Shown here: in pieces, positions 10,971-55,903 of the stretch
How positions within the stretch are numbered: position 1 is the first letter of the stretch
Layout: every line of letters starts with the position of its first letter
Source of the DNA: Candidatus Magasanikiibacteriota bacterium
GTDB lineage: Bacteria > Patescibacteriota > Patescibacteriia > Magasanikbacterales > UBA922
Length of the DNA: 56,031 nt
Assembly: GCA_018650085.1 (NCBI GenBank)
Contig: JABIGQ010000039.1
Location: 1 to 56,031, forward strand
Reading direction: 5' to 3'
Translations under genes and position numbers: made by a program
Notes under the pieces: model-generated
The model's database searches: none
The model's input: only the letters and a program-made list of their open reading frames with translations
What the model was told of the DNA's origin: nothing

Positions 10971-12461
10971 ATGCTCACTGAATATCAAAAATATAGAATG
11001 TATGAAATACTTCCAGGTGTTACTGTATGGGGGACACTTATTGCTGCAGTAGTATTATCTTTTACTCAGCCACTTTGGATGATTTACGCAGTTATTTTAT
11101 TTGATATTTATTGGGTTATTCGTGTTATTAATTTTTCTTTTTATCTCACCATTGCATGGTTACGATTTTATCGGGTGCGTCAAATTGATTGGAAAGATAC
11201 CATGCGTCATGAGTTAACAAATTGGCAAGAAAAACATCATGTCGTATTTTTGACATTATATAAAGAAGAGTGGCCAGTAGTAAAAACGTCATTAGAGAGT
11301 CTTGTAGATGCAGTATATGATAAAGAGAAATTTGTCATTGTCATAGCAGGAGAAGAACGCGCAAAAGAACAATATGAAGGTATATTAGCTCAAGCAAAAG
11401 AAGAATTTGGAGATAAATTTTTTGATATAGTTGGGACACTTCATCCAAAAGATTTAACAGGAGAGATTCCAGGAAAAGGATCAAACCTTCATTATGCGGA
11501 AAGGCAAATGAAAAAGTATATTGATAAAAAACAATGGAAACATGAAAAAGTTATTGCAACTATTTTTGACATAGATACTATCTGTCATATCCAATATTTT
11601 GCATATTTAACGTATCTATATTGTACGCACCCTACACCTACCAGAACTTCATTTCAACCAATTGCACTGTATAATAATAATATTTGGGATTCTCCAGCCC
11701 CATTACGTATTATGTCATTTGGAACTACTTTTTGGACATTTACTAGTTTAGCAAGGCAAGATGCATTAGTGACTTTTTCATCTCATTCTATGAGTTGGAA
11801 AGCTATAGTAGATGTAGGGTTTCATGAAAAAAGAATTGTAAGTGAAGATTCTCGTATTTTTTATCAATGTTTTCTTCATTATAATGGAGACTATAGAGTG
11901 ACTCCTATGTATTTGCCCGTATCTATGGATACAGTCCGAGATGATAGCTGGTGGGTAAGTATAAAAAATTTATATAAACAACAACGACGTTGGGCGTGGG
12001 GGACGGAGCACATCCCATATCTTATTACTGAATTTAAAAAGAAGGGGAAACTTATTCCTCTGTGGAAAAAGGCAAAATGGGTGTTTTTTGAATGGGAAGG
12101 GAAATGGTCTTGGGCTTGTGTGGCGTTACTTATTACCGTATTAGGACAACTTCCTATGCGTATTGCCCCTGCATCTGTCCGCCAAAGTGCATTGTTTTTT
12201 AACACCCCTCATCTATTACAAATTTTAATGACCATGGCATTACTTGGTATGGTCACCTCTGCTATTTTTAGTTTTCCTCTTCTCCCAAAACGTCCAGAAT
12301 CACATCCACGACATAAATATATTATTATGTTATTACAGTGGTTATTACTTCCTATAACCATGATTTTAGTCAGTGCTATTCCTGCTATAGATGCGGTAAC
12401 TCATCTTATGTTTGGGAAATATTTGGGATTCAATGTCTCTCAGAAAAAAAGAAAATTATAA
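10971..12461 (+). CDS. membrane-embedded family 2 glycosyltransferase (processive type)
   Basis: 496 aa. N- and C-terminal TM helices flank a cytoplasmic domain with IFDIDT (DxD), SEDSRI and the QxxRW motif (QQRRWAWG). Confidence 0.65.
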   Translation: MLTEYQKYRMYEILPGVTVWGTLIAAVVLSFTQPLWMIYAVILFDIYWVIRVINFSFYLTIAWLRFYRVRQIDWKDTMRHELTNWQEKHHVVFLTLYKEEWPVVKTSLESLVDAVYDKEKFVIVIAGEERAKEQYEGILAQAKEEFGDKFFDIVGTLHPKDLTGEIPGKGSNLHYAERQMKKYIDKKQWKHEKVIATIFDIDTICHIQYFAYLTYLYCTHPTPTRTSFQPIALYNNNIWDSPAPLRIMSFGTTFWTFTSLARQDALVTFSSHSMSWKAIVDVGFHEKRIVSEDSRIFYQCFLHYNGDYRVTPMYLPVSMDTVRDDSWWVSIKNLYKQQRRWAWGTEHIPYLITEFKKKGKLIPLWKKAKWVFFEWEGKWSWACVALLITVLGQLPMRIAPASVRQSALFFNTPHLLQILMTMALLGMVTSAIFSFPLLPKRPESHPRHKYIIMLLQWLLLPITMILVSAIPAIDAVTHLMFGKYLGFNVSQKKRKL

Positions 12462-30668: not shown

Positions 30669-31406
30669 ATGGAAGAAAAAAAAGGATTTAACCAAATGCT
30701 CAACCAACTAACACCTGTACAAACATTTGCTCTTGGACTAACTCAAGGATTGCTTGTCCTGTGTACTATTGGTTTTTTCATGTTATTGGTAGGAGGAATT
30801 TCTATAAATAGTGAAACTGTAATGGCCGAAGGAACGCCTACTATTGTAAATCCAACTCCTACAGCAGCAGCTGGACAAGTAGCCCCAAGAGTAGTAGATG
30901 CAAAAGTGGACCATATTCTTGGAAATAAAGATGCAAAAGTAACTATTATAGAATATACAGATATTGATTGTCCATATTGTAAACGTTTTCAAACCACAAT
31001 GAATGAAGTTGTAGAGAAATATGGTGATAAAGTGCGTGTGGTACTTCGTCAATTCCCATTGGATGGTTTACACCCAAATGCACGAACAAAAGCACTTGCA
31101 ACAGAATGTGCAGGAGCACAAGGAAAATTCTGGGAATTCATAGATATATTATTTGATAGAGGAACAGATGTTTCTAGGCTTGCTGCAGTAGCAGGGGAGT
31201 TACGTTTAAATGTAAATACATTTAATAGTTGTCTAGCAGATAAAAGCTTTGCCTCAAAGGTACAAGCAGATGAAAGTGACGCCCAAAAAACGGGTGGTCA
31301 AGGGACTCCACATAGTTTGATTGTAGGGCCAAATGGGGAAGTGCAAGTAATAAAAGGAGCACAGCCATTGGAACAAATTGAACAAATGCTACTTCCATTG
31401 CTCTAA
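30669..31406 (+). CDS. membrane-anchored DsbA-like thiol:disulfide oxidoreductase
   Basis: 245 aa. A TM anchor, then a thioredoxin fold with the CxxC motif (DIDCPYCKRF) and GTPHSLIV (cis-Pro region). Confidence 0.75.
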   Translation: MEEKKGFNQMLNQLTPVQTFALGLTQGLLVLCTIGFFMLLVGGISINSETVMAEGTPTIVNPTPTAAAGQVAPRVVDAKVDHILGNKDAKVTIIEYTDIDCPYCKRFQTTMNEVVEKYGDKVRVVLRQFPLDGLHPNARTKALATECAGAQGKFWEFIDILFDRGTDVSRLAAVAGELRLNVNTFNSCLADKSFASKVQADESDAQKTGGQGTPHSLIVGPNGEVQVIKGAQPLEQIEQMLLPLL

Positions 31407-31430
31407 GAGTAATAACAAGATAAATCAAAA

Positions 31431-31458
31431 ATCCTACGACATGTCGTAGGATTTTTTT
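31431..31458 (+). terminator. intrinsic terminator of the dsbA-like gene
   Basis: Perfect palindrome ATCCTACGACATGTCGTAGGAT followed by TTTTTT, 25 nt after the stop codon. Confidence 0.75.
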
Positions 31459-32003
31459 ATATAACATATAAATAAGAAAAGCTTAGTGTCGCACAATGTA
31501 GAAAAGGGGAGCCTATTTATATAGCAGGGAAGTAGTGGTAGTGTTTTCTTATCTATTTTAATAACTTGCTACACTTGAACTTTTAATTAAATGAGCTGCT
31601 CCCAAACATAGCATGAAATATAATCTAAGAAAATATTTTTTATTAATTATTACTATTTATAAATGTAGATTTAATTTTTTTATATAAAAGATGAACCCTA
31701 GTACCTCTAGTTTTGAAGCGCTATTTCGTGGTGTCGCAAAACATAGTTTTCTTTGCTAAAACTAGCGAAATTTAGGACATGAGGTATGTGGCAAATAACA
31801 TGATTTAATCTATGGAAAATAAGATTATTTTTACTTATAAAACATAGTTTAAATATATAGATCTATTGCCTCATAGAACTGCACAGTAGCCCTTTACAGG
31901 CTGTATTGTAGGTTTGCTTGATTGTAATAACAACTATATTATTAGGGGTTATGTCGCATAAGATACATTGTGCGACATATGTATATTCTTATAAAAATCC
32001 TTT

Positions 32004-32048
32004 GGAGGTATGATAGATGAAACAACGTGTCTTATCTATCATACCTCC
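32004..32048. other. perfect 15-bp stem / 15-nt loop hairpin
   Basis: GGAGGTATGATAGAT-gaaacaacgtgtctt-ATCTATCATACCTCC. U-rich sequence follows on both strands. The left arm contains GGAGG and the ATG of the small + strand ORF. Confidence 0.8.
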
Positions 32049-32175
32049 TCTCCTCTTTAGTGTTTGTGTTACCTTAGTATATGCAGAGAGTGTATACCCG
32101 ACATGCGGCATATATACTCAGGAGGAAACAACTTGTCAAGAATATCTTCATCGAAGTTTCCATTTACCCTCCTAA
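32017..32175 (+). CDS. candidate small secreted peptide (52 aa) - uncertain
   Basis: My own reading, below the track size cutoff. GGAGG lies 8 nt before the ATG. The product is MKQRVLSIIPPLLFSVCVTLVYA|ESVYPTCGIYTQEETTCQEYLHRSFHLPS: a textbook n/h/c signal peptide and a 29-aa two-Cys tail. Against it: the RBS and start sit inside a perfect 15-bp hairpin, and the ORF overlaps an antisense small ORF. Confidence 0.3.
   Translation: MKQRVLSIIPPLLFSVCVTLVYAESVYPTCGIYTQEETTCQEYLHRSFHLPS
32074..32163 (-). CDS. candidate 29-aa hydrophobic Cys-rich peptide - speculative
   Basis: METSMKIFLTSCFLLSIYAACRVYTLCIY. The ATG lies 4 nt after the AGGAGG that ends repeat copy 1 when read on the minus strand. 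The 15-bp hairpin follows 26 nt after the stop. Confidence 0.2.
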   Translation of the reverse strand: METSMKIFLTSCFLLSIYAACRVYTLCIY

Positions 32176-32227
32176 GACAAAGGTAATGGGGCAAGCAAGT
32201 CTACTTGCCCAGTTTTAGGTTAATCCC
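32168..32227. repeat. structured direct repeat, copy 1 (60 nt)
   Basis: cctcctaagacaaaggtaatggggcaagcaagtctacttgcccagttttaggttaatccc. It has an outer helix CCTAAGAC/GTTTTAGG and an inner helix GGGCAAG/CTTGCCC. Confidence 0.85.
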
Positions 32228-32269
32228 CCTCCAGCACGCCGGCTCTTACGAGTGGCTGTAACTGGAGGG
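32227..32269. other. GC-rich hairpin
   Basis: CCCTCCAG-N27-CTGGAGGG, with an inner imperfect GCCGGCTC-ttac-GAGTGGC helix. Confidence 0.7.
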
Positions 32270-32281
32270 AGGAAAGAAATT

Positions 32282-32536
32282 CTATTCTAAGATTTTTACC
32301 AACACTTTGGCTAATCCAATTGCTAACCCTATACAGATCAGCCCTAATGCAATACACAAACCACAACCCGAAGAATCACAAGTAGTGTATGTAGCCTTAG
32401 GCGGAGGAGACTGGCAGCCCCCCCATTTTTGTACTTGTTGGATAGGAATTGGAGGAAGAGCTCCCATTTTGGCGGCAGCCTCCCTTTTTAAATTTTTTTC
32501 TCTTCCACGCTTTCTTCTCGTCTGCCTTGTGGCCAC
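32282..32536 (-). CDS. candidate 84-aa tail-anchored Cys-rich membrane protein - uncertain
   Basis: This is track ORF 32282..32569 trimmed to the GTG at 32536, which lies 6 nt after AGGAGG. Product: (M)ATRQTRRKRGREKNLKREAAAKMGALPPIPIQQ...CDSSGCGLCIALGLICIGLAIGLAKVLVKILE. It has a basic N-terminus and one C-terminal TM helix. An equally long antisense ORF exists, so coding status is unproven. Confidence 0.3.
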   Translation of the reverse strand: MATRQTRRKRGREKNLKREAAAKMGALPPIPIQQVQKWGGCQSPPPKATYTTCDSSGCGLCIALGLICIGLAIGLAKVLVKILE

Positions 32537-32542
32537 GTCCTT

Positions 32543-32598
32543 CCTCCTAAGACAAAAGTAATGGGGCAAGTCTACTTACCCAGTTTTAGGTTAATCCC
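32543..32598. repeat. structured direct repeat, copy 2 (56 nt)
   Basis: cctcctaagacaaaagtaatggggcaagtctacttacccagttttaggttaatccc. It differs from copy 1 by two substitutions and a 4-nt deletion in the hairpin loop. Confidence 0.85.
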
Positions 32599-32636
32599 TA
32601 TTAAGATTAACAGCAAAAAAGTCCTTTTTTTTGTCT

Positions 32637-32664
32637 AAAAAAATAATAGCATAAATATGCTATT
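32637..32664 (-). terminator. intrinsic terminator of ftsQ-like gene (possibly bidirectional)
   Basis: On the minus strand: AATAGCAT-attt-ATGCTATT followed by A-TTTTTTT, about 25 nt after the ftsQ stop. Confidence 0.55.
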
Positions 32665-32689
32665 TTGTCTAGGGAAGTGCTAAATTCTC

Positions 32690-33622
32690 CTACTTCCAAT
32701 AAACTCTATCTCCAAACCGCAAATCAATATACCCCACACTTGAACGATCTATTTTTTCTTCCAATAAATACTGCAGTGTATCAAACTGTCTCGTAATATC
32801 TTTTGTTAGATATATATCAATATGCCATCCCTCACGAGTATAGATACGCCCCTCCCCTATCTCACCATCAATTTCAATATACCTAAACGGTATATCTGTT
32901 CTTTCTTTTATTTGAGTAAACCAAGTAATTGCACCAAAAACTATCTCTGTTTGTAAGATTTCTGTATGCTCCTTGTGCTCCTCATTTCGTGTATCATAAA
33001 TAATAGGATAATCTCCCATTTCTGCTACAATTGCTTGTGTTTTTATAATATGTTTTTTTTCAATAATTCTTTCTTCTTCTACTTCTTTTTCCTCTCCATC
33101 TTCTGTCATGATAGTACTTGTCACTATTTCTTTTTTTATATCCCATTCATCATCACCAACAGTTCTTACCACCTCTACCAAATATCCAGATACATCTAAA
33201 TACCCATATTGATGACCATCATCATAAATAACAGTAGACAATTTTTCTGTAACCTCTACATGAATGGTATCTGGGAATTCTTTTTCTACACGAATACCAT
33301 CTATAGCCAAGCGTTCTAGTAAAATATCTTTTATTTCATCTACATTTACCAGAAAATAACTTTTCTTTGGGAATACAAATAATGTTTTATAATCAATAAT
33401 ACCATCCACCATATTTGCTACCTCTGTGGCATTTAATCTTTCTGTCCCAGAAACAGTAATATCTGAAACATGAAAAAAAGGATGATACAATCCCATCCCA
33501 GTCATAGTAAGAACACAAAGAGTCCCTAAAGTAATATAGAGTTGATTTTTCCAGCTTTTTATTTCTAACTTATATGGATTGCGCTGGTGTCTTTGTTTTG
33601 CAAGATCTCGTTTATTGCGCAT
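32690..33622 (-). CDS. ftsQ: cell division protein FtsQ/DivIB (POTRA domain)
   Basis: 310 aa. Basic N-terminus, one TM helix, then FHVSDITVSGTERLNATEVANMV... (POTRA). It lies at the end of a wall-synthesis gene string. Confidence 0.7.
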   Translation of the reverse strand: MRNKRDLAKQRHQRNPYKLEIKSWKNQLYITLGTLCVLTMTGMGLYHPFFHVSDITVSGTERLNATEVANMVDGIIDYKTLFVFPKKSYFLVNVDEIKDILLERLAIDGIRVEKEFPDTIHVEVTEKLSTVIYDDGHQYGYLDVSGYLVEVVRTVGDDEWDIKKEIVTSTIMTEDGEEKEVEEERIIEKKHIIKTQAIVAEMGDYPIIYDTRNEEHKEHTEILQTEIVFGAITWFTQIKERTDIPFRYIEIDGEIGEGRIYTREGWHIDIYLTKDITRQFDTLQYLLEEKIDRSSVGYIDLRFGDRVYWK

Positions 33623-47028: not shown

Positions 47029-47379
47029 TCATTCTTTAAAAGCTTCTACAACAATATTGAATGCATCTAAAGATTTACCTACTAAATATTTTTGTGCAAT
47101 ACTAATTCCATCCTCAGAATCACTAAGTAACTCAAATGTACCTGTCATAACCAGATCATAAGCAGAACTATCACCACTATTTATTAAAGAATCTAACAAG
47201 TCAAAGCAAGACTTCAAAAGTATTTCATCTTTTTTATCAGCTAATTCTTTTATATACGTAGCTAATGCCCCAAAAACCATATATGGCAAATCTATATCCT
47301 CATCGGTATTCCGTGCATACATTTCAAATTCCGGGATAATTTTAAATAATTTTTTAACTATATTTTGATTAGTCATCAT
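47029..47379 (-). CDS. candidate cognate immunity protein of the RHS toxin
   Basis: 116 aa, acidic, predicted helical. Its ATG lies 4 nt after the RHS stop codon, which is the canonical toxin-immunity placement. Confidence 0.55.
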   Translation of the reverse strand: MMTNQNIVKKLFKIIPEFEMYARNTDEDIDLPYMVFGALATYIKELADKKDEILLKSCFDLLDSLINSGDSSAYDLVMTGTFELLSDSEDGISIAQKYLVGKSLDAFNIVVEAFKE

Positions 47380-47383
47380 ACTA

Positions 47384-50300
47384 TTAATTTAATGCATTTA
47401 ATAAATCATTCAATAATTCTTGAGCTATAGATCTATCTGAAACAGATATATTCTCCCTCCCTAAAAATTTTCTCAATGCATTCACTGAATCTTGTCCTTT
47501 TTGTATATGATTACTACCACCTATTAATTCTCCTGTTATTTTCGTATGACGTATTGCATCAGCAGTTCCTCCGTCTCCATACTTTGCAGAACTCCTATAA
47601 TTCCTTTCAATTATACTTCGCAACTTTTGGTGCTGTACTTTTGATAAAAGATTCCCTCTTCTCGTATTCAATAATTTAATATTTGGGTCAACCCTTCTAA
47701 AATCATTAATATCTACATCTAACCCTCTTACTACACTGCCACGAAGAGATCTAGTAGGAACAAAAGGTAATTCACCTCCCATTAAAAATAACATTGCATC
47801 TAATTCCGTAAACTCATCCCCAGAAAACAAATATCTTCCTGTAATAGCTCCATATGCTTCAGATATATCACCTGTTATTGGAAAAGAATCTAATAATACA
47901 TCATAACCTGAATCATACATATCTGAATTTATATACCTAGGTGTAGAATTCATAGATGTAGAATCTGAACCATATCCATAATCAAATCCATAAGAATAAT
48001 TTGCTAGATTAAAATCCTCCCCAATCATCCCCGTAGGATCCACATACTTCAAAGGATTATTCTTCACATACACATACCTATTTCTCGACAAGACATCTCC
48101 ATCTCTACCCATATAAGAGTCTCGTGAAATAAATCTTCCAGTCTTTGGATTGTAATACCTAGCATTATAATAATACAATTCACTCTCAAAATCCTGCTCT
48201 TGGTTAGTGAAAAGATAGTTTGTTGTTTGTGTCCCTTCATACCCTATTGTACCACCAAATGCGTCATATTCATACATTCCTACTATTTCTGAAGATTCAT
48301 CTGTTAGTAGTACTGTACTTCCTAATACATCTGTATGTATATATGTTATTTCATCCTCTGCATCAATCTCTGCAATCATTTCTATGCCGTAAATATTTGT
48401 TTTACTCACAACACCCGCACTATCTAGTTCATTAAGAACTCGAAGTCCATCATTAATATAATAACTCGCTTCATTATTTACGGATTTTTTTATCCTATTT
48501 CCATAGTCATCATACGCAAAACTTACTGTATTTTGACTAGCACTTGGAAGAAAATTTGGTCTGCTATTGTCTGTGTAACTAATCTGAGAAAGCCTGTTTT
48601 CTGCATCCCAAACATAATCTACCGTTTTAAGTGGATCCCCACCTCTAGTATACACTTCTTGCGTAAGACTTCCATTTCCATCATAAACATTTGATACTGC
48701 AAGTGTATTATTTACCGTATAACTTGCTAGTTCATTTGTATTGAGAGCGTAAGTGTAATTTGTCGTGTCTGTATTGTTTACATAAGTTGTCCTATTCCCC
48801 CACTTATCATACGTATACGTCTGATCCACTCCTGCCCCAATAATTGTATAATCTACTGTTTTGAGCTGGTCGAGCGTATCGTATGTATAATCTATTATTC
48901 TAGTATTATTTTCTACTACACGTGTCCTATTATGCTCTGCATCATACGTGTAGTCATGACTCCACACTGTTTCTGCTTGTGGATTTACTATTGTTTGTGT
49001 TTCTAATCGTTGCAAGTCATCATATACATAATTAGTTGTATAATTATTTGCATATGTTAAACTTGCTGGTTTCCCAAAACTAGTATAACCATACGTTGCC
49101 AAAGGCTGCCCAAGATAATTTACTGTTTGGAGAAATCCTCTATTGTTATACGTATATGTTATTGTTTTTCCAGAAGCATCAGTCAAGCTTGCTGGACTTG
49201 AGTCTGTGTTATATGTTCTTGTAATTATTTTTGAATTCTCAGGCAAATCTGAAAATCTTTGTACTTCCTGTGTTTGTCTATTGAGATCATCATACGTATA
49301 GTTAGTTGTCAGCTCTAACGTAACACTTTGCGTATTGTTCCCCCAATTGTCATAAATATATGTTGACTGTGTTTCATCTGAAAATGTTTTTGATACAATT
49401 TGTCCAAGCACATCATACACATATGTAATTGTACTATTTTCTCCATCTACTTTTGTAATAATATTCCCTTCTGCATCATACGTATAATGTTCTGTTTTAT
49501 TTCCTAAACTAGTTACTTGCGTCACTCTATTTAAATCATCATACAGAAAACTAGTCACATGCCCATCTACATTTTCAGACAATCTATTTCCATTATTATC
49601 ATAGGTATATATTGTTTGGGTTCCTTGTACATTGGTTTCACTTGTAAGCTGATCTAATTTATTATACACAAAACTAGTGCTATTTCCTTTTTTATCTATT
49701 CTACTAGTAATATTTCCATGCCCATCATAAACAAGAGTACTCGTATTATTATACGCATCTATTGTATCTGTTTTTCTATGTCCTGTATCATAGATATAAT
49801 CTACGGTTGTATTATCTGCATAGGTAATTCCTGTTTGATTTCCTTGTGCATCATAGGTATATCTCGTAATATTTCCTCCATTATCTTCTTCTGAAATAAG
49901 TCTATTAAATTCATCATAGATATATGTAGTAACCCTGCTTTCTTTATCTGTAACTGTCAAAACATTACCCAGGGCATCATAAGTATAGCTAATACTATTA
50001 CCATAAGCATCTGTTTCTGTTAGCTTTCTTCCTAATTTGTCATAAGTATAACTCACTGTATGAGTATTGTTTAAACCATCTGCCGATTGACGGTCTATCA
50101 TATTTGTCAAATCACCACGTGCATTATATGTAAAAATACTTTCTGTATCATCTGCATAACGAATACGGATTCGTCGCCCTGCTTCATCATAGTCATATGT
50201 TATCGTATTTCCATCACTATTACATAATCCTACATCCATCAAACAACGATCTTGTTTTTCACCAACTCTATTCCCTATTGCGTCATACACATATTCTATA

Positions 50301-53300
50301 TGATGGCCCACTTCATTTTCTTCTTCAACTAATTGGTTATTTGCATTGTATTCAAATACAGTCCTATTCCCATTTGGATCTATTACTCGTATTTGATTTC
50401 CAAAACCATCATACACATATTGTATTGATACAAAATCAATAGCAGTAGAATATGCACGTTCTTCCATTATCTGATTTCGTGCATCATAGATATATACTTT
50501 TTTTCTTCCTTCTATATCTGTTTCTTCTTTGAGGTTTCCTTTTGCATCATAAATATAATCTATTGTCAAAACAGGTGTTATTTTTTGACTGATTCTTCCA
50601 TTATCATCATAGACATAACTTATTTCATTACCATTCGCATCTGTTTCGGTTACTAATCTTCCAAGGTTATCATAATCTTTACTTGTCACAATATCTGCTT
50701 GTGTAAGACCAATTTGTTTTGTCTCAAGCAAACTTGCAGATATATCTGTTGCATATACAAATTCTGTACGTTGATTATTTTCATTTACCCTTGCTGTTCT
50801 GTGTCCTTCTATATCATATTCATATGTTTTTATTCCTCCGAGTGGATTTGTTTCGGTAAGAATATTGTTTTGATTGTCATATGTGTAAGTATATACTTCT
50901 CCCATTGGGTCAGTATAAGTTTCTCTATTTCCAAAGACATCATAAGTATATGTTTTTGTTATAGTTTCTTGTTGATTATCTGCATCTGTTACTGTTTTAC
51001 TTTCTGTTAATCTATAATTTCCATTTACATCGTATGTGTAGGTTATAATGTTACTATTCTTATCTGTGTGAGTAAGTATATTCCCATATTGGTCATAAGT
51101 ATAGCTTTCTGTATTCCCCATTGGGTCAATTACAGATAAAATATTCCCATCTGTTGGGTCTATAGTATAGCTTGTTACTTTCTCATCATAAAGTTCTGCT
51201 TGGACTACCCCGTCTATGATTTCATATACTTGTTCTCGTTTTTCTTGGATTCTATTGAAAGCTCCATAAGTATATGTTATTTTTGTTCTCCAGTTTTCTG
51301 TATTTGGTAATATTGTGCTTACAACTCTTCTATCTGTATCATAAGTATATCCTGTTGTTTTATTGTTTTGGTCTGTTTTGGATATCACCATTCCTTCTGC
51401 ATTTCTTGTTTGGGTTATAGTATTTCCATCGGTATCAAATTGAGCAACTTTTAAATGTTTGTCACTATAACAATATTTCTCTAATGTAAAATTGACTTCA
51501 TCACTATAATTTTTTACAAGTGTACAATAACTATCTCCTGTAACAGCAGGATCTTCTCCTAGATACGCCAATGTCCAAACCAAGCGTTTTTCTCCTACTT
51601 GATCTTTATCTGAATTATATTCATGCTGAACTGTCGTACGCCCTTCTGCATCATATGTATTATATAAAATAGTTCCACGAGCATCAGTATATGTATATAA
51701 TCTATATACATCAGTATCTACATATTTTGCATAAGTAAAACTATCTGTTTTTATTGTTGTTACTCCATCTGTTATAATTGTTTTTCTTACTTCTTTGAGT
51801 ACTGGGATTTCTGAATCTAATGTTTCATAGATATAATCAATTGTTGCACTATTATTTGGGTCTCCTGAATTATATGTAACTTTTGTTACTTTATCCCAAC
51901 GTTTATCATCAGTAATTTCTCCATAGGTAAATGTTATTTCTCGCCCAGAAGAATCTACTACTTGGGTAAGCATATCTACATTTCTTTTTTCTGTATAATT
52001 GAATATTGTCGCATTAGCATTGGTATCTTCAATCCTCTCAAGCAAGCCCATATTGTCTGTGAGCTTTAGAGAATAATAATATTTCATTCCTGATAACTTT
52101 TCTAAAATAAGAAATGTTTCTGTTGCATCATTATATAATTTGTCTGTCTGTCCTGCTGATACATATTTTCCATCAACCATTTCAAATATATTTGCTACTG
52201 TTCCCCCTTTGTATACCACAACTTTTCCGCTTGTTGGGTCTTTATAATAATATTGATTATATGAATATTTCCATCCCAATCCAAAACGAGCATTTTTTAT
52301 AGTTTTACTATTATAATATCTGGTTAAATCTATTGATTCTCCACGACCTGACAATTGTAGGTCTGTCTGTGTTAGTTCAAATGATCCTGTTCTGGCATCT
52401 ACTGGATCTGCTACTGGAGTCATTTCTCCATTTGAATTCTCTTGACTTTGGCTATCGTCTGTTGGATTTACATCAACAATTCCCTCTGTAGTTCCTCCTA
52501 GTCCTTCTTCTAACTCTACTATTCCATCCCCATCATTATCTGCTGTGGTGTGTGTTGGATTAGAAGAACCTGAACCACTTTGAGGAGATTTAGTAGTAAA
52601 ATACCATTGGCTACTAGGAAAATATCCTTCTGCTCCATCATTATCCCGTGCTTTTACTCGCCAATAATACCGTGTTCCATATGATAAATTACTCACACCA
52701 AATACAGAGTTATTATTCCCAATCCATTCTGAATAAAAATCTGTACCAGAAAAATACTGATCTGTACTTATTTCTACAAAATAATCTACAATTGATCCAT
52801 CTGGATCTGAACATCCCCAGTCAAGATTTAATGATAAATTTTGATTTGATGCAGTAATATTAGGGGAAACAATGGTACAACGACTTGGGACTTGATTAAT
52901 GTCTACTTCTATGTATGCTGTATTATTATCTTCATTTAATTCTATAATATTTTCATTATCATCTATCTGAAATAAAATATAGTTACTCCCTAAATAATCC
53001 AGACTTTCTGGCAATGGTAGAGGATTCGATACATCTATATATTCACCAGAAGCTAAAGAACTAATATTTCTTGAATTAAGCGGAAAATCATTATCATCAA
53101 CAACCGTATCTGTAGACAAATAATATTGTAATGTAAATAAATTATTTATATCTCCCCCGCTATTTCTTATACGCACACTCGCTGTCGGCACATCTCCAAC
53201 AATTAATGATACATCCTCAACACTTTGGTCTTCTAAAATTAAATCTGGCAAATCTTGTAAATTAAAATTTACAATTCTTGAAAAAAGAATATCATCCTCA

Positions 53301-55903
53301 TTATAATCATCATTTTGGGCAATCTCTACTAAATCACTATCATATAAATGCATATATGTATCTGGCTCCCCATTTGTAGGACCCGATGTTTGAATCGTCA
53401 CAACACTGCCTGAACGAGAAAAAGATAAGTGATATGTTCCTATTTCTGTATCCCTATAACCTCGTACTTTAATATAATAATTTTTTCCATCATATATAAA
53501 ACGATACCAATCTTCATCTGCTTCTGTAAGATATGAATTATTACGTGTATAACTTGTACTAGAACCAAGATATTCAGCAGAGCCACTTGAATCATTTGGT
53601 TCATATGGATCTAAAATCGGTTCACTAATAGTAACCTCTTCATAGACAACATTATTTTCTTCATTTGACTCCCCTACAACCCCAGCTTTATCTGCACGAA
53701 ATAAAATATAATATGTTCCTGGCCCATTATATGTTGAATCTGCTGCTAAAAAATTTTCAGAAAATGTTATATTTGTATATTCATCATTATAACCTTGAGA
53801 AGACAAAGCATCTACACTATCTGATGCAATAAGATAATCCAATTGATCCCATTGAGTATCTCGAGATAAATAATAGCCCACAGAGGATGCACCACTATCA
53901 TCACTTCCTTGATTAAGAATACGTACATCCAATCGTACTGCGTCTCCTACAGTAATAGCATCATCACTCACATCTCTTGTACTTGGAATCAAATCAATAT
54001 TAGTTTCTGTAAGAAGTACTCTAATATATGGGGCATAATCACCAGCTTCCTCTTGAGCATTAAATACTAATAACCTATCTTTCCAACTTGCAGGAGGAGT
54101 ATTTCCTGATGACCATTCTTCACTAGGCTCTAACAGTACTCCCCAATTTATTTCTCCTCCCTTCCATTGTCTCACTGAATTTGTTATGTCAAAACTTACC
54201 CATCTTTGTGTCTCAGAACTATCGAATGTATCTATTGATTCATTTTCTTTTTCCAAGTGTTCACGAAAATATGGATAAGATAATGATGAAATATTATATG
54301 GCGGCCATGCTTTTGTAACCCGCTTTGCTTCTAAATTAACAACTTGATCACTCCCCTCACCAAAATTGTGATAATACATTTTTAATTGTGCATTATCCAC
54401 ATCTCCTGGAAGATTCATATAATCAGCAGCTGCAGCGACTATAAGATGCCGAGTATAATCATTTACTCCATTTACCAAGCGTCCAGTATATAATCTACCT
54501 TCAAACTCTTCTTCCGCAGAAGGATTTTGTGCCCCCCCATTTACCGCACGAAGATAAAAATCAAATTGATTACAATCCAAATAATATCTTCCACTATAAT
54601 TTTCTTTACATGGATAATATACAGGATCAATAATAACTGGATATACCCGTTCTTTTGCTGTTAAATATGAACCAGGAACTTCCAATCCAATTCTCATTTT
54701 TCTTAACTCATAATCTACTTCTACAATCTGATCCAATCCAATATGAGACAATTCACCATACATTGAAGTATCTTCTTGAGAATCAAACATAATTGCCCCA
54801 GTAATTCTTAACTCACTTTGATCTGGAAAAACAATTCTAACATTTTCATTATTCTGTAAAATTTGCGTACCCTTTATTCTATCTTCTCCTACCAAAACAT
54901 CACTCCCTTTGGGAAATTCATATTCTTCCCAAAACAAAAGTTTATCTTTTAAGGAAATATCTTCTGGCTCTGATTGTATTATTATTTTCCTTTCTCTACT
55001 AAACGCTTTATCATGAAATAACACATCTACATTCGGATACATATTTTTAATTGTAGAAATAGATGTGTTATTTTCTTTTGTATAAGAAACAGTCCCTGAT
55101 ACGGGTTTTTTTATGTAGGAATTTTCATCAACTGAATCAACTTTTTCTAAATTTCCTGCACTAATAGCCACCGAATATCCTTCTTCTGACGTTGGTGTAT
55201 CATACTGATACCCAACATATTTTTCTACAGACTGAAACCTTGACTTATCCGCATCTTGAAATAAACTCCAATCTTTTGAACGAAGAAAAGTTTCACCATT
55301 TTTTTCATCAATTTGCACTGGTCTAGGTGTCTGATAAATATGCCATATTTGATCTCCATTTTCTTTATACGCAACATCACGCACACTATCTACTACATGG
55401 AACTCTAGATCTTCATTCAATTTTTCAACCTTTTCTTCCTCCACAAACAAACTCTTCACTGGTTCAATAATTTCTTCTGTAACAAAATCCACAACTTTAT
55501 CAAAAAAACTTTCTTCTTTAGTTAATTCTTTTGCTTCTTCCTCTTCTACAATAAAGTCAAGCGAATTTGCACCGCTAACTTCTTCAAGTGGCATGAGAAT
55601 TGCTTGCTCTGGTTTAATATCAGATACAGTCGTTGTTGTAAATATAGAAGATTCTTCAGATTGTACAACAACGTCCTCTTCTACTTCTACATCTGTAATA
55701 ATGCTTGTTTCTGTACTTGTCGGCACAGGCTCTACTAAATTTTCTATAGCAATATGTTCAATATCTACACTTTCTTCTTCTACAACAATAATATTATCCA
55801 CAGAAGTACTCGTGGAAATACTCTGCGCAAAAACAGACACAGTAGGGAATAAAGCAAAGTATATACTAAACACTATAAATGTATATTGTTTTATTTTTTT
55901 CAT
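47384..55903 (-). CDS. Sec-signal RHS/YD-repeat polymorphic toxin (2839 aa)
   Basis: Signal peptide MKKIKQYTFIVFSIYFALFPTVSVFAQS. RHS onset ADPVDARTGSFELTQTDLQL...RYYNS. Dozens of YD repeats (YTYDxxGN). Core end YYNARYYNPKTGRFISRDSY...NPLKYVDPTGM at 48026..48040. A 213-aa C-terminal extension follows. Confidence 0.9.
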   Translation of the reverse strand: MKKIKQYTFIVFSIYFALFPTVSVFAQSISTSTSVDNIIVVEEESVDIEHIAIENLVEPVPTSTETSIITDVEVEEDVVVQSEESSIFTTTTVSDIKPEQAILMPLEEVSGANSLDFIVEEEEAKELTKEESFFDKVVDFVTEEIIEPVKSLFVEEEKVEKLNEDLEFHVVDSVRDVAYKENGDQIWHIYQTPRPVQIDEKNGETFLRSKDWSLFQDADKSRFQSVEKYVGYQYDTPTSEEGYSVAISAGNLEKVDSVDENSYIKKPVSGTVSYTKENNTSISTIKNMYPNVDVLFHDKAFSRERKIIIQSEPEDISLKDKLLFWEEYEFPKGSDVLVGEDRIKGTQILQNNENVRIVFPDQSELRITGAIMFDSQEDTSMYGELSHIGLDQIVEVDYELRKMRIGLEVPGSYLTAKERVYPVIIDPVYYPCKENYSGRYYLDCNQFDFYLRAVNGGAQNPSAEEEFEGRLYTGRLVNGVNDYTRHLIVAAAADYMNLPGDVDNAQLKMYYHNFGEGSDQVVNLEAKRVTKAWPPYNISSLSYPYFREHLEKENESIDTFDSSETQRWVSFDITNSVRQWKGGEINWGVLLEPSEEWSSGNTPPASWKDRLLVFNAQEEAGDYAPYIRVLLTETNIDLIPSTRDVSDDAITVGDAVRLDVRILNQGSDDSGASSVGYYLSRDTQWDQLDYLIASDSVDALSSQGYNDEYTNITFSENFLAADSTYNGPGTYYILFRADKAGVVGESNEENNVVYEEVTISEPILDPYEPNDSSGSAEYLGSSTSYTRNNSYLTEADEDWYRFIYDGKNYYIKVRGYRDTEIGTYHLSFSRSGSVVTIQTSGPTNGEPDTYMHLYDSDLVEIAQNDDYNEDDILFSRIVNFNLQDLPDLILEDQSVEDVSLIVGDVPTASVRIRNSGGDINNLFTLQYYLSTDTVVDDNDFPLNSRNISSLASGEYIDVSNPLPLPESLDYLGSNYILFQIDDNENIIELNEDNNTAYIEVDINQVPSRCTIVSPNITASNQNLSLNLDWGCSDPDGSIVDYFVEISTDQYFSGTDFYSEWIGNNNSVFGVSNLSYGTRYYWRVKARDNDGAEGYFPSSQWYFTTKSPQSGSGSSNPTHTTADNDGDGIVELEEGLGGTTEGIVDVNPTDDSQSQENSNGEMTPVADPVDARTGSFELTQTDLQLSGRGESIDLTRYYNSKTIKNARFGLGWKYSYNQYYYKDPTSGKVVVYKGGTVANIFEMVDGKYVSAGQTDKLYNDATETFLILEKLSGMKYYYSLKLTDNMGLLERIEDTNANATIFNYTEKRNVDMLTQVVDSSGREITFTYGEITDDKRWDKVTKVTYNSGDPNNSATIDYIYETLDSEIPVLKEVRKTIITDGVTTIKTDSFTYAKYVDTDVYRLYTYTDARGTILYNTYDAEGRTTVQHEYNSDKDQVGEKRLVWTLAYLGEDPAVTGDSYCTLVKNYSDEVNFTLEKYCYSDKHLKVAQFDTDGNTITQTRNAEGMVISKTDQNNKTTGYTYDTDRRVVSTILPNTENWRTKITYTYGAFNRIQEKREQVYEIIDGVVQAELYDEKVTSYTIDPTDGNILSVIDPMGNTESYTYDQYGNILTHTDKNSNIITYTYDVNGNYRLTESKTVTDADNQQETITKTYTYDVFGNRETYTDPMGEVYTYTYDNQNNILTETNPLGGIKTYEYDIEGHRTARVNENNQRTEFVYATDISASLLETKQIGLTQADIVTSKDYDNLGRLVTETDANGNEISYVYDDNGRISQKITPVLTIDYIYDAKGNLKEETDIEGRKKVYIYDARNQIMEERAYSTAIDFVSIQYVYDGFGNQIRVIDPNGNRTVFEYNANNQLVEEENEVGHHIEYVYDAIGNRVGEKQDRCLMDVGLCNSDGNTITYDYDEAGRRIRIRYADDTESIFTYNARGDLTNMIDRQSADGLNNTHTVSYTYDKLGRKLTETDAYGNSISYTYDALGNVLTVTDKESRVTTYIYDEFNRLISEEDNGGNITRYTYDAQGNQTGITYADNTTVDYIYDTGHRKTDTIDAYNNTSTLVYDGHGNITSRIDKKGNSTSFVYNKLDQLTSETNVQGTQTIYTYDNNGNRLSENVDGHVTSFLYDDLNRVTQVTSLGNKTEHYTYDAEGNIITKVDGENSTITYVYDVLGQIVSKTFSDETQSTYIYDNWGNNTQSVTLELTTNYTYDDLNRQTQEVQRFSDLPENSKIITRTYNTDSSPASLTDASGKTITYTYNNRGFLQTVNYLGQPLATYGYTSFGKPASLTYANNYTTNYVYDDLQRLETQTIVNPQAETVWSHDYTYDAEHNRTRVVENNTRIIDYTYDTLDQLKTVDYTIIGAGVDQTYTYDKWGNRTTYVNNTDTTNYTYALNTNELASYTVNNTLAVSNVYDGNGSLTQEVYTRGGDPLKTVDYVWDAENRLSQISYTDNSRPNFLPSASQNTVSFAYDDYGNRIKKSVNNEASYYINDGLRVLNELDSAGVVSKTNIYGIEMIAEIDAEDEITYIHTDVLGSTVLLTDESSEIVGMYEYDAFGGTIGYEGTQTTNYLFTNQEQDFESELYYYNARYYNPKTGRFISRDSYMGRDGDVLSRNRYVYVKNNPLKYVDPTGMIGEDFNLANYSYGFDYGYGSDSTSMNSTPRYINSDMYDSGYDVLLDSFPITGDISEAYGAITGRYLFSGDEFTELDAMLFLMGGELPFVPTRSLRGSVVRGLDVDINDFRRVDPNIKLLNTRRGNLLSKVQHQKLRSIIERNYRSSAKYGDGGTADAIRHTKITGELIGGSNHIQKGQDSVNALRKFLGRENISVSDRSIAQELLNDLLNALN

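Follow-up and report, generated by a model that had tools for sequence, protein, structure and literature searches.

A repeated hairpin in a Magasanikbacteria genome and its possible relationship to an insertion-prone archaeal element

The stretch of DNA analysed here (the window, 56,031 nt) comes from Candidatus Magasanikbacteria, a lineage of the CPR, as the FtsQ homologues indicate, and carries behind ftsQ a block of about 0.6 kb with two nearly identical copies of a short repeat. The explanation to which we give slightly better than even chances, on the basis of sequence comparison, is that these repeats are diverged CPR copies of an uncatalogued hairpin-forming and insertion-prone module of ~65-80 nt, and that they would act on the minus strand as leader hairpins partly covering the Shine-Dalgarno (SD) sequence. 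The features of the region are as follows:

32643..32671, minus strand: promoter-like site TAGACA-17-TGnTATTAT, just past the ftsQ stop (a consensus match only)
32049..32663, minus strand: lineage-specific block of ~0.6 kb (GC 0.42 vs 0.33), bounded by the conserved CTAGACAAA behind ftsQ and by the terminator-like hairpin
32543..32598, minus strand: repeat copy 2, the upstream copy on this strand (GGGAUUAACCUAAAACUGGG, hairpin, CAUUACUUUUGUCUUAGGAGG)
32579-32597, minus strand: core of copy 2, same letters as the archaeal core
32564..32581, minus strand: copy-2 inner hairpin (GGGUAAG-UAGA-CUUGCCC); its G-U pair exists on this strand alone
32282-32536, minus strand: ORF84, 84 codons from a GTG start, with a C-terminal hydrophobic stretch; a doubtful gene
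32227..32269, minus strand: GC-rich hairpin between ORF84 and copy 1, without U-tract, whose 3' arm gives the G-run before copy 1
32168..32227, minus strand: repeat copy 1, the downstream copy on this strand, with a hairpin loop 4 nt longer than that of copy 2
32208-32226, minus strand: core of copy 1, the exact 19-mer
32189..32210, minus strand: inner hairpin of copy 1, GGGCAAGUA-GACU-UGCUUGCCC
32074-32163, minus strand: ORF29, 29 codons from an ATG start, hydrophobic; probably spurious
32004..32048, minus strand: terminator-like hairpin with 21-nt arms, then AAAGGAUUUUUAU
32017-32175, plus strand: ORF52, 52 codons, with a GGAGG SD at -9 and a signal-peptide-like N-terminus; it ends inside copy 1

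The repeat pair and its surroundings

An earlier note on this DNA had described a duplicated element of 56-60 nt, and the duplication is borne out by a repeat search, in which 2 substitutions and an indel of 4 nt in the loop separate 32168-32227 from 32543-32598. The two halves of the repeat (32168-32195/32543-32570 and 32195-32227/32566-32598) are 96% and 97% identical, respectively, and each of them occurs twice in the 56-kb window with up to 3 mismatches (expected 0.00-0.02), the window being otherwise devoid of copies. A search for the core allowing up to 4 mismatches found no extra copy across ~76 kb of this genome. Both copies end on the minus strand in CUUAGGAGG, and the boundaries of the repeat match exactly the 5' core of the motif described below and the 3' strand of the outer helix plus the SD. 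Besides the loop indel, the copies differ by a change that still allows wobble pairing and by another in an internal loop, which is the pattern expected if the hairpin is kept. Copy 1 is preceded by the G-run GGAGGGGG, whose source is the 3' arm of the GC-rich hairpin. Beyond the repeat, the two units show no mutual similarity.

All of the 0.6-kb block is specific to this lineage and represents an insertion. The two nearest relatives (FtsQ identity 59% and 45%) lack the block holding both copies, with 88 nt between the shared anchors versus 687 nt in the window, and the motif was sought in both of them and not found. The block is identical across independent assemblies, and the hairpin at 32048-32004 occupies the position where locus L007 carries a comparable hairpin and AGGATTTTTT after ftsQ. 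The GC-rich lines and the GC hairpin reported previously are present (0.55 at 32221-32280 and 0.53 at 32401-32460, vs 0.333 for the window; hairpin at 32227-32269). Of the element GGCAGCCyCCCwTTTTT, said to occur twice, the GGCAGCC does appear at 32413 and at 32474, each time with a run of C and then one of T behind it; the pattern holds exactly at the second position only.

When the block was compared with every fetched locus, plasmid, and phage, only the core was found to be similar. Pfam annotation of the window and of 20 kb of flanks revealed no transposase, integrase, or reverse transcriptase. The sole candidate for a target duplication is a direct repeat of 6 nt (AAGGAC) around copy 2, which is not convincing, and copy 1 has none. 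A match to U6atac at 32616-32706 on the minus strand (32.2 bits, with a gathering score of 33) was judged to be due to chance. The copies would have arrived by horizontal transfer or insertion, and not by evolution in place.

An archaeal family with the same core

The minus-strand core of the repeat, GGATTAACCTAAAACTGGG (19 nt), is exact in both window copies and identical in 18 archaeal genome loci and ~39 metagenome loci. All the genome matches (18/18) are archaeal and stand in one conserved context, which is shared by 39 of the 40 metagenome matches. This element, defined in this analysis as the archaeal GGAUUAACCUAAAACUGGG-hairpin element, is multi-copy (dozens of copies) in Altiarchaeota and DPANN archaea, and spans ~65 nt: a purine tract comes first, UCA and the core follow, and a long, imperfect hairpin leads to CGCGGUUUGG. 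It is absent from Rfam: no family of Rfam 15, riboswitches, leaders, ribozymes, and sRNAs included, matches the repeats or the archaeal copies at the gathering score or at E <= 10, and the remark in the earlier note that the repeats resemble no riboswitch, RNase P, tmRNA, or SRP consensus stands after a covariance-model check. Searches of the literature by organism, concept, and sequence string found no description of the element, none of the collections scanned gave a second bacterial example, and the motif was not found in viral contigs with three patterns.

The hairpin of the family covaries strongly. It holds 16 pairs, in which 98.9% of the cells are paired (86.9% in shuffles; at most 62% in slid controls) and 96 cells show double changes, compared to 28 in shuffles. 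The hairpin starts at the GGG of the core, and its 3' strand pairs back to CCUAAAAC(UG), the partner strand being CGGUUUGG; it is imperfect and has bulged bases, and its terminal stem varies and sometimes holds large insertions. An invariant U-G and seven G-U pairs, together with a variable stem free of A-C, indicate that the fold forms on the sense strand, which corresponds to the minus strand of the window. In addition, the purine tract mirrors the 5' arm of the hairpin, and the G-run of the arm exceeds that of the flank by exactly 1 in 41/46 copies, a signature that, judged from sequence, looks triplex-like.

Several other roles for the motif were considered. The idea that the purine tract competes by Watson-Crick pairing for the hairpin's 3' arm was rejected, because a T stands opposite the A of the arm in 10/46 copies and the asymmetric cases fit the mirror register and not the direct one. 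A coding reading, with an upstream ORF running through the motif, was discarded by inspection, as the frames differ between loci. A mascRNA-like match in L019, which could have suggested tRNA-likeness, derives from a duplicated T-arm of tRNA-Pro and not from the motif. That the motif is a plain archaeal promoter is only a possibility; the spacing to the downstream starts fits, but the hairpin takes up insertions of 16-72 nt in four copies.

The motif constitutes the right end of small insertions, which at their 3' side run directly into a second copy of the target sequence. The inserts lie between direct repeats that match exactly over 16-103 nt, and shorter degenerate ones were seen by eye. 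The target duplication exceeds the 99th percentile of the null at 17 of 52 loci, and all these 17 duplications start between -2 and +6 nt from the end of the motif. Insertions are found at tRNA 3' ends, in CRISPR repeats (one copy lies inside a CRISPR array), and at the first bases of highly expressed genes, with 6/52 copies close to a gene start versus 1.45% at random positions (p = 1e-4). Their right junctions tend to adjoin GTT in the target, and the loci L019 and L017 provide a pair of empty and filled sites. The archaeal copies are solitary and sit in housekeeping loci; all-against-all clustering of ORFs found no enzyme gene recurring near them, only housekeeping families, and by inspection the ends of the family share no inverted repeat.

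Besides the core, the window copies have in common with this family a hairpin that begins at the GGG of the core and an outer 3' strand that pairs back to CCUAAAAC, although the sequence of this 3' strand differs from that of the family. They lack the 5' purine tract with UCA that mirrors the 5' arm, as copy 1 shows GGAGGGGG with neither UCA nor mirror and copy 2 shows AUAG, and they also lack the tail CGCGGUUUGG or C(C)GCGGUUUGG. R1, the covariance model of the archaeal form, aligns the G-run and the core of copy 1, but its scores for the two copies of the window are at noise level, 12.0 bits (E = 0.24) and 8.8 bits (E = 1.4), while the archaeal copies reach 40-87 bits. Homology is therefore based on the 19-mer, the position of the hairpin, and the logic of the outer helix.

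Strand, reading frames, and competing explanations

The fold claimed in the earlier note, with an outer helix CCUAAGAC/GUUUUAGG and an inner hairpin GGGCAAG/CUUGCCC, is indeed the MFE structure of the plus strand, but the isolated copies fold no better than shuffles on either strand (z-scores: plus, -0.7 and -0.2; minus, -1.6 and -1.3). On the minus strand, the outer helix reads CCUAAAAC/GUCUUAGG, encloses a 10-nt internal loop, and extends with its 3' strand into the SD. The argument on strand drawn from G-U and A-C pairs holds only in part: the outer helix, where plus has G-U and minus A-C, favours plus, whereas the substitution in the inner hairpin of copy 2, which makes a G-U pair on minus but C-A on plus, favours minus. 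The 0.6-kb block as a whole is more stable on the minus strand (-218.6 vs -189.5 kcal/mol). That the minus strand is the functional one is supported by the wobble of copy 2 and by the orientation and wobble bias of the archaeal copies. A terminator scan flags the inner hairpin of copy 1 on both strands and that of copy 2 on the minus strand only; the hairpins flagged have weak tails (CAUUACCUUU and AGUUUUAGGU), the actual terminator-like site being the hairpin at 32048-32004.

In the module reading, minus-strand transcription of the block would come from ftsQ by read-through or start at the promoter-like site (32671-32643), in a region where 6 such sites were found and 5.6 are expected. Each copy would then form a leader hairpin, and since its 3' strand GUCUUAGG contains the first bases of AGGAGG, this structure would damp or gate the translation of what lies downstream.

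Regarding the frames that follow the copies, the described layout is there, with CUUAGGAGG followed by GTG 6 nt on (ORF84) and by ATG 4 nt on (ORF29). A hairpin also stands behind each ORF, as had been noted, but a U-rich tail is present only on the second (32048-32004). No homologues of ORF84 were found in 5.8 billion proteins (word index) or in 1.84 billion representatives (exhaustive HMMER), and its only matches, in giant repeat proteins, which are sums of weak matches to a repeat unit, were not taken as homology. Pfam gave no match for four small ORFs, and gene callers run on long contigs called nothing in the gap. Real genes score 0.46 +/- 0.15 per codon for codon usage; ORF84 scores +0.10, which is 2.4 SD under real genes, yet above false frames (-0.24 +/- 0.36), and ORF29 scores -0.58, typical of false frames. 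The two ORFs are unrelated to each other, and the strand opposite ORF84 is open across all 255 nt. We infer that both are more likely to be by-products than conserved genes, although two perfect AGGAGG-plus-start arrangements and a frame of 84 codons could also mean real orphan peptides. In practice, the repeat can be taken as real and as foreign in appearance, and annotation of the two 'membrane peptide' genes should await expression evidence.

These data bear directly on the proposal that a dedicated SD-occluding 5' leader was duplicated before two real small membrane peptides, as in a type I toxin-like or small-protein operon, which we consider unlikely. A start codon 4-6 nt after the AGGAGG that ends both copies, the basic N-terminus and C-terminal hydrophobic stretch of ORF84 and its codon score above that of false frames, the minus-strand MFE of copy 1, in which the SD and AUG are paired with CAUUACCUUU, and the terminator-like hairpin closing the unit are all what such an operon would show. 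However, the two very large protein searches, the codon scores of both ORFs, the open opposite strand, the silence of the gene callers, and the lack of relation between the two ORFs argue against this proposal, and a crude consensus scan found no promoter-like site for an antitoxin on the plus strand. That strand is even harder to defend as the source of a structured ncRNA, or of terminator-like 3' elements for plus-strand ORFs, and we regard this proposal as extremely improbable. The family wobble bias and the copy-2 substitution favour minus and contradict the ncRNA version put forward earlier; the plus-strand fold is weaker, and a crude consensus scan of 31300-32800 found no promoter-like site on the plus strand. 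On the side of this proposal are the wobble of the outer helix, the SD of ORF52 at -9, and the flagging of the copy-1 inner hairpin as a terminator on both strands, that of copy 2 being flagged on minus only; the SD and start of ORF52, however, fall within the hairpin with 21-nt arms, and its codon score is -0.08.

The other two explanations concern the origin of the repeat. A functionless local duplication, with a single copying of a 60-nt piece inside a decaying fragment of horizontal origin and an archaeal match that means nothing functionally here, would agree with just two copies at one locus and with the loss of several canonical parts of the motif; nevertheless, the inter-copy changes spare the hairpin, and the ends of the repeat coincide with the 5' core and with the outer-helix 3' strand plus SD, so that we find it quite improbable. 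Folded attC-like recombination sites bracketing unrelated small cassettes, in an integron-like or cassette-like system, are very improbable. Near-identical 60-nt repeats do lie between unrelated short ORFs of the same orientation, the family hairpin is long, imperfect, and bulged, with a variable terminal stem, and the archaeal right junctions tend toward GTT in the target. Against this, only two copies exist, no tyrosine recombinase or attI was found in the window or in 20 kb of flanks, and in place of RYYYAAC/GTTRRRY the element has CCTAAAAC with GTCTTAGG or GTTTGGN. Furthermore, integron recombination yields no target duplications, whereas the archaeal copies, solitary and in housekeeping loci, are flanked by them.

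A wider reading, which we hold tentatively and find rather doubtful, would place the window at the bacterial margin of a novel class of small mobile elements that are structured and cross domains (CPR, DPANN, and Altiarchaeota), with a triplex-clamped hairpin, spread with long target duplications, and a possible role as leader. The hairpin would be clamped by an antiparallel purine-motif triple helix, and spread would leave long and variable target duplications and one precisely joined end, with retroposition or template switching from an RNA or ssDNA with a defined end as candidate mechanisms. The element would land at tRNA 3' ends, in CRISPR repeats, and just upstream of the start codons of highly expressed genes, where it may serve as a self-processing or expression-insulating leader. 

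The archaeal element itself precedes tRNAs, CRISPR arrays, and genes for ribosomal proteins and RNA polymerase, and so may affect the expression of core genes. If the link holds, the 19-nt core marks the exchange of a tiny non-coding element between a CPR bacterium and Altiarchaeota/DPANN, which would be set among episymbiont-rich communities in groundwater and sediments. Clear covariation of the hairpin, the rare covariation of a mirror repeat, and target duplications whose pattern fits no standard prokaryotic IS, MITE, REP, or attC mechanism make the archaeal family a well-defined candidate for a new class of structured RNA or ssDNA.

Comparison with known systems

Like MITEs, REP/REPIN sequences, and IS200/IS605-derived PATEs, the element is short, non-coding, hairpin-forming, enzyme-free, and intergenic near gene ends, and the archaeal copies are multi-copy. 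Unlike MITEs, which depend on a DDE transposase, it has no terminal inverted repeats, and its duplications are long and variable (16-103 nt) instead of fixed and short. REPs and PATEs lack target duplications, which the archaeal copies have; moreover, REPs and PATEs reach high copy numbers and have an associated HUH transposase, whereas the bacterial genome holds two copies in ~76 kb, and no enzyme family recurs near the copies. Two further features separate the element from all three: conservation and precise joining are confined to its right end, and the mirrored purine tract covaries with the hairpin arm.

The archaeal family resembles eukaryotic SINE/LINE retroposition at its 3' end, which is structured, conserved, precisely joined, and marked by microhomology at the junction. 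It also shares a variable 5' part, target duplications of variable length, and a bias toward tRNA genes and strongly transcribed loci. The resemblance is one of pattern only. No reverse transcriptase was linked to the family, and it has no poly(A) or simple-repeat tail. No bacterial or archaeal element of this kind is known to move by target-primed reverse transcription.

Integron attC sites share with the element an imperfect, bulged hairpin of ~60 nt, a variable terminal stem, and junctions near GTT, and with the window near-identical copies separating unrelated short ORFs; they differ in their consensus boxes, in their integrase and attI, and in forming arrays. Type I toxin-antitoxin systems and SD-sequestering leaders are likewise reminiscent of the window, with tandem short hydrophobic ORFs behind a leader that pairs with part of the SD. 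In contrast to type I systems, the ORFs of the window have no homologues and an atypical codon usage, a crude scan found no antisense promoter, and the family of the leader precedes tRNAs, CRISPR arrays, and housekeeping genes.

The last comparison is with triple helices. Known RNA triplexes have U-rich third strands that run parallel to the purine strand, whereas the archaeal signature is antiparallel and purine-rich, and the window copies carry no such tract. Even so, H-DNA mirror repeats and the triple helices of ENE/MALAT1, SAM-II, and telomerase RNA have a counterpart in the archaeal family, where a purine tract mirrors the purine-rich arm of a helix. The A of this arm faces A or T, in line with G.G-C, A.A-T, and T.A-T triples.

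The repeat and the block behind ftsQ

The direct repeat pointed out in the earlier note is genuine: 32168-32227 (copy 1) and 32543-32598 (copy 2) match except at two substituted positions and for a hairpin-loop indel of 4 nt, and each half of the repeat occurs exactly twice in the 56-kb window at ≤3 mismatches, where 0.00-0.02 occurrences are expected. Allowing ≤4 mismatches, its 19-nt core has no additional copy in ~76 kb of the same genome (window and flanks). A search of Rfam 15 left the repeats unmatched at the gathering score and at E ≤ 10, which upholds their uncatalogued status. The GC content of the two GC-rich lines (0.55 and 0.53, against 0.333 for the window) and the GC hairpin at 32227-32269 were found as claimed. 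The reported twice-occurring motif is GGCAGCC at 32413 and 32474 with a C-run and a T-run behind it; the exact pattern fits the second site only. Likewise, the proposed outer helix and inner hairpin are indeed the plus-strand minimum-energy fold, but isolated copies fold no better than shuffles on either strand (z from -0.2 to -1.6). As described, the minus-strand end of each copy is CUUAGGAGG, after which comes GTG at +6 (84 codons, ORF84) or ATG at +4 (29 codons, ORF29). The sole stem substitution between the copies gives G-U on the minus strand and C-A on the plus strand, and a 641-nt stretch folds at -218.6 kcal/mol (z = -6.2) on the minus strand versus -189.5 (z = -4.3) on the plus strand.

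The repeats sit in a 1283-nt gap, identical in sequence across independent assemblies, with a DsbA-like gene on one side (30669-31406, plus) and an FtsQ-type gene on the other (32690-33622, minus), and in this gap gene callers run on long contigs placed no gene. By its FtsQ homologues, the organism belongs to Candidatus Magasanikbacteria (Patescibacteria/CPR). The nearest relatives by FtsQ are only 59% and 45% identical, and both retain a short stretch after ftsQ (CTAGACAAA in L007, a contig of one of them) and a strikingly conserved hairpin, GTCGCACAATGTATCTTATGCGAC. These two anchors lie 88 nt apart in L007 and 687 nt apart in the window, which therefore carries an extra block of ~0.6 kb (about 32049-32663, GC 0.42), placed between the ftsQ stop and a terminator-like hairpin (32048-32004). 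In L007, ftsQ is followed by a comparable hairpin and AGGATTTTTT.

Elements of the extra block, in minus-strand order
32671-32643, minus: promoter-like site
32543-32598, minus: repeat copy 2
minus: ORF84, 84 codons
32227-32269, minus: GC hairpin
32168-32227, minus: repeat copy 1
minus: ORF29, 29 codons

Outside the repeat, the two units show no similarity to each other. The rest of the window and 20-kb flanks hold housekeeping functions only, and encode no integrase, transposase or reverse transcriptase.

The four small ORFs of the gap had no match in Pfam, and a word-indexed search of 5.8 billion proteins returned no homologue of ORF84. Exhaustive HMMER searching of 1.84 billion representatives retrieved large repeat proteins only, which were rejected as homologues because their score sums many weak matches to a 27-residue unit. 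Scored with a codon model built on 37 long window ORFs, none of the four behaves like a native gene; ORF84 is ambiguous, and ORF29 looks spurious.

Codon scores (log-odds per codon)
Real genes: 0.46 +/- 0.15
Open false frames: -0.24 +/- 0.36
ORF84, minus: +0.10
ORF29, minus: -0.58
52-codon ORF, plus: -0.08
84-codon ORF, plus: -0.18

The plus-strand 52-codon ORF (32017-32175) is preceded by GGAGG at -9, and its N-terminus (MKQRVLSIIPPLLFSVCVTLVYA) is signal-peptide-like; its stop lies inside repeat copy 1, and its Shine-Dalgarno sequence and start inside the terminator-like hairpin, which has 21-nt arms.

Other features of the region were recorded alongside. The 24-mer GTCGCACAATGTATCTTATGCGAC (6-bp stem, 12-nt loop; no match in Rfam) recurs without change 3' of ftsQ in three Magasanikbacteria genomes with FtsQ proteins of only 45-59% identity (window 31950-31979; L007 9020-9045; 9088-9112 in L008, the contig of the other relative). 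A partial inverted copy (GTCGCACAAT...) follows at 31486-31500 in the window and about 9393-9405 in L008, 300-460 nt away across an AT-rich stretch; the L007 contig ends too soon. A U6atac covariance-model match at 32616-32706 (minus; 32.2 bits, gathering score 33), overlapping the ftsQ end and the promoter-like site, is probably due to chance in AT-rich sequence. Directly after the DsbA-like gene, a perfect 30-nt palindrome (AAAAATCCTACGACA/TGTCGTAGGATTTTT, 31427-31456) looks like a bidirectional terminator. Farther away, an RHS/YD-repeat protein of 2839 aa (47384-55903, minus; CARDB, DUF6531 and TEN_YD-shell in gene calls of the loci L070/L072) is followed by a 115-aa DUF7674 gene (47029-47376), a polymorphic-toxin-like layout in a CPR genome. 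A small Imm17-family ORF adjoins mreB (11044-11259 of the locus L069).

An archaeal motif with the same core

The plus-strand 19-mer CCCAGTTTTAGGTTAATCC was scanned against one genome per species of bacteria and archaea, yielding 18 loci, all 18 archaeal and several per genome, in Altiarchaeota/Altiarchaeales, Micrarchaeota, Iainarchaeum and unclassified archaea. JGI metagenomes added 40 loci, and viral contigs, plasmids and phages gave no match. In all loci except L057, the 19-mer is embedded in one motif of ~65 nt.

Parts of the archaeal motif, oriented like the window minus strand
Part 1: purine tract, e.g. GGGGGAGGG
Part 2: UCA
Part 3: GGAUUAACCUAAAACUGGG
Part 4: hairpin of variable sequence
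Part 5: C(C)GCGGUUUGG

RNAalifold predicts a single long imperfect hairpin, CC..AAACUG.GGAGGGGG-loop-CCCCCUCC.CGGUUUGG. Across 46 distinct copies, 98.9% of cells pair, versus 86.9% when shuffled (0/500 shuffles reach the observed value), with 96 double-change cells versus 28; slid controls pair in ≤62% of cells. There is an invariant U-G, and the variable stem holds seven G-U pairs and no A-C; these pairs show that the archaeal fold is selected on the strand corresponding to the window minus strand. The archaeal copies have no family in Rfam, and a literature search, including one by sequence string, found no description of the motif.

The purine tract 5' of UCA mirrors the 5' arm of the hairpin. 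Read outward from the core, its G-run equals the G-run at the arm base minus one in 41/46 copies, a relation that spans five classes, from (2,3) to (6,7), and that permutation reproduces in 16 copies on average and 26 at most. Facing the A of the arm, the tract has as its first non-G base an A (34 copies) or a T (10), and asymmetric tracts fit the mirror register and not the direct one. The pattern matches the needs of an antiparallel purine-motif triple helix (G.G-C, A.A-T, T.A-T). From established triplex rules, we infer that the mirror relation reflects such a helix, in RNA or single-stranded DNA. A competing Watson-Crick helix for the tract was set aside, as it would not call for this pattern.

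The window copies share with this motif the exact 19-nt core, a hairpin beginning at the same GGG, and a 3' strand pairing back to CCUAAAAC (GUCUUAGG in the window, CGGUUUGG in archaea); copy 1 also has the G-run (GGAGGGGG) in front. Neither has the UCA-linked mirrored tract or the CGCGGUUUGG tail, both contain a 10-nt internal loop, and because of this they score only 12.0 and 8.8 bits with the covariance model built from archaeal copies, which is noise level; the range for archaeal copies, among them three diverged ones that the model itself picked up, is 40-87 bits. The window copies are therefore best regarded as a diverged variant and not as members of the family as modelled. Identity of the 19-mer by chance is very unlikely, since all matches but L057 have a single conserved setting and the structure next to the core follows the same logic. 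The window and the family are linked by a limited set of common features. In L057 (1732-1837), a high-GC metagenome contig without clear genes, the exact 19-mer leads into a different hairpin, and farther on comes an AGUUUU that complements AAAACU; the locus may represent the element in a third variant, or a match by chance.

Two copies lie close together in L034 (700-2060, minus), L045 (3950-4160) and L059 (1040-1330, minus); those of L059 are nested upstream of one gene start, each with its own duplication of the 5' region of the gene. Older-looking copies in L034 and L059 have core variants GGAGAACCCTCAAAC or GGAGGAACCTCAAAC together with GGTTCGG, which hints at a second pairing, of (U/G)AACC with GGUU(U/C). 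An uncultured archaeon contig (L014 5496-5561, minus) carries a DUF3800-X RNA (Rfam RF02984, 52 bits) ~200 nt from a motif copy.

Insertion behaviour in archaea

No fewer than 17 loci have, immediately 3' of ...GGUUUGG, an exact direct repeat of 16-103 nt whose partner lies 96-236 nt upstream. By local alignment, 17/52 loci exceed the 99th percentile of the between-locus null, and in 17/17 of these the downstream duplicate begins -2 to +6 nt from the motif end; shorter or degenerate duplications are visible by eye at further loci. Most commonly the target is the 3' portion of a tRNA gene, beginning in the T-loop or anticodon arm and ending 0-2 nt beyond the discriminator; protein-gene 5' ends (L058 among others) and a CRISPR repeat also occur as targets, the latter in L036, where the motif comes after an internal copy of the array trailer and abuts the repeat that opens a second run. 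Two related Altiarchaeia contigs offer an empty and a filled site: the native sequence after tRNA-Ala in L019 is that beyond the right-hand duplicate in L017. The gain in L017 is thus an 18-nt duplication and a 144-nt unit that has the motif at its end. The inserts have a lineage-dependent left part; at the right they are conserved and join the target precisely, often beside a GTT in it.

An ORF of at least 100 codons whose first ATG lies ≤20 nt downstream on the same strand was found at 6/52 loci, versus 1.45% at random (p = 1e-4). Downstream genes, from translations read by eye, include ribosomal protein L18e, RNA polymerase subunits and riboflavin synthase, and whole tRNAs lie directly 3' of two motif copies. 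No enzyme family recurs near the archaeal copies.

The CRISPR array that fills L036 (minus strand), also present in L038 and L068, has the repeat GTTTGAGAAGTACTATGTAGTGTGGAAAC; its own trailer (CAAAACTGATAGAAG...AAAGTTGGG) is copied mid-array, followed by the motif and a repeat without its first GTT, which reads as if a second array had started behind the element. In Altiarchaeota-like contigs, a common module stands behind many tRNA genes and consists of a T-rich hairpin (CCCTTTTCTTTTT..AAAAAGAAAAG) with GTGGTTTCATYCCCAAAAGAAAAA (L017 1587-1650; L019 6642-6700; downstream of tRNAs in L030, L033 and L065), and L019 has an orphan tRNA-Pro 5' fragment before a similar T-rich module. Therefore, tRNA flanks in these genomes look heavily repeat-remodelled.

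Readings of the window repeat and known systems

On balance, we favour the reading that the window repeats are two copies of a mobile hairpin-forming module, acting on the minus strand, that reached the site downstream of ftsQ as part of a foreign 0.6-kb block or by insertion into it. Transcription of the block could come from ftsQ read-through or the promoter-like site, and in that case each copy would form a leader hairpin whose 3' strand would hold the first bases of AGGAGG; we infer every functional step of this explanation. A dedicated leader for two real small peptides, to which the Shine-Dalgarno and start geometry and the features of ORF84 lend themselves, has nothing else in its favour and appears unlikely. 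The earlier note had proposed either a leader of this kind or a plus-strand RNA; the uncatalogued structured repeat read on the minus strand survives from it, but the type I toxin layout is unsupported.

A duplication without function is less probable still, given that the changes between the copies preserve the hairpin. We see little room for attC-like cassettes, as no recombinase was found and the consensus boxes are unmet, and least of all for a plus-strand non-coding RNA or terminator, against which the strand evidence favours the minus strand.

The finding goes beyond a local leader in interest: the mobile-module reading, taken with the archaeal loci, points to a cross-domain family, so far undescribed, of small structured insertion elements that show triplex-type covariation. 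The archaeal inserts differ from DDE-type MITEs in having no terminal inverted repeats and no fixed duplication length, and for the same reasons they do not fit the patterns of REP or IS200/IS605 derivatives or of attC recombination. In pattern alone, the archaeal element would be reminiscent of retroposition, or of templated insertion from a molecule with one defined end.
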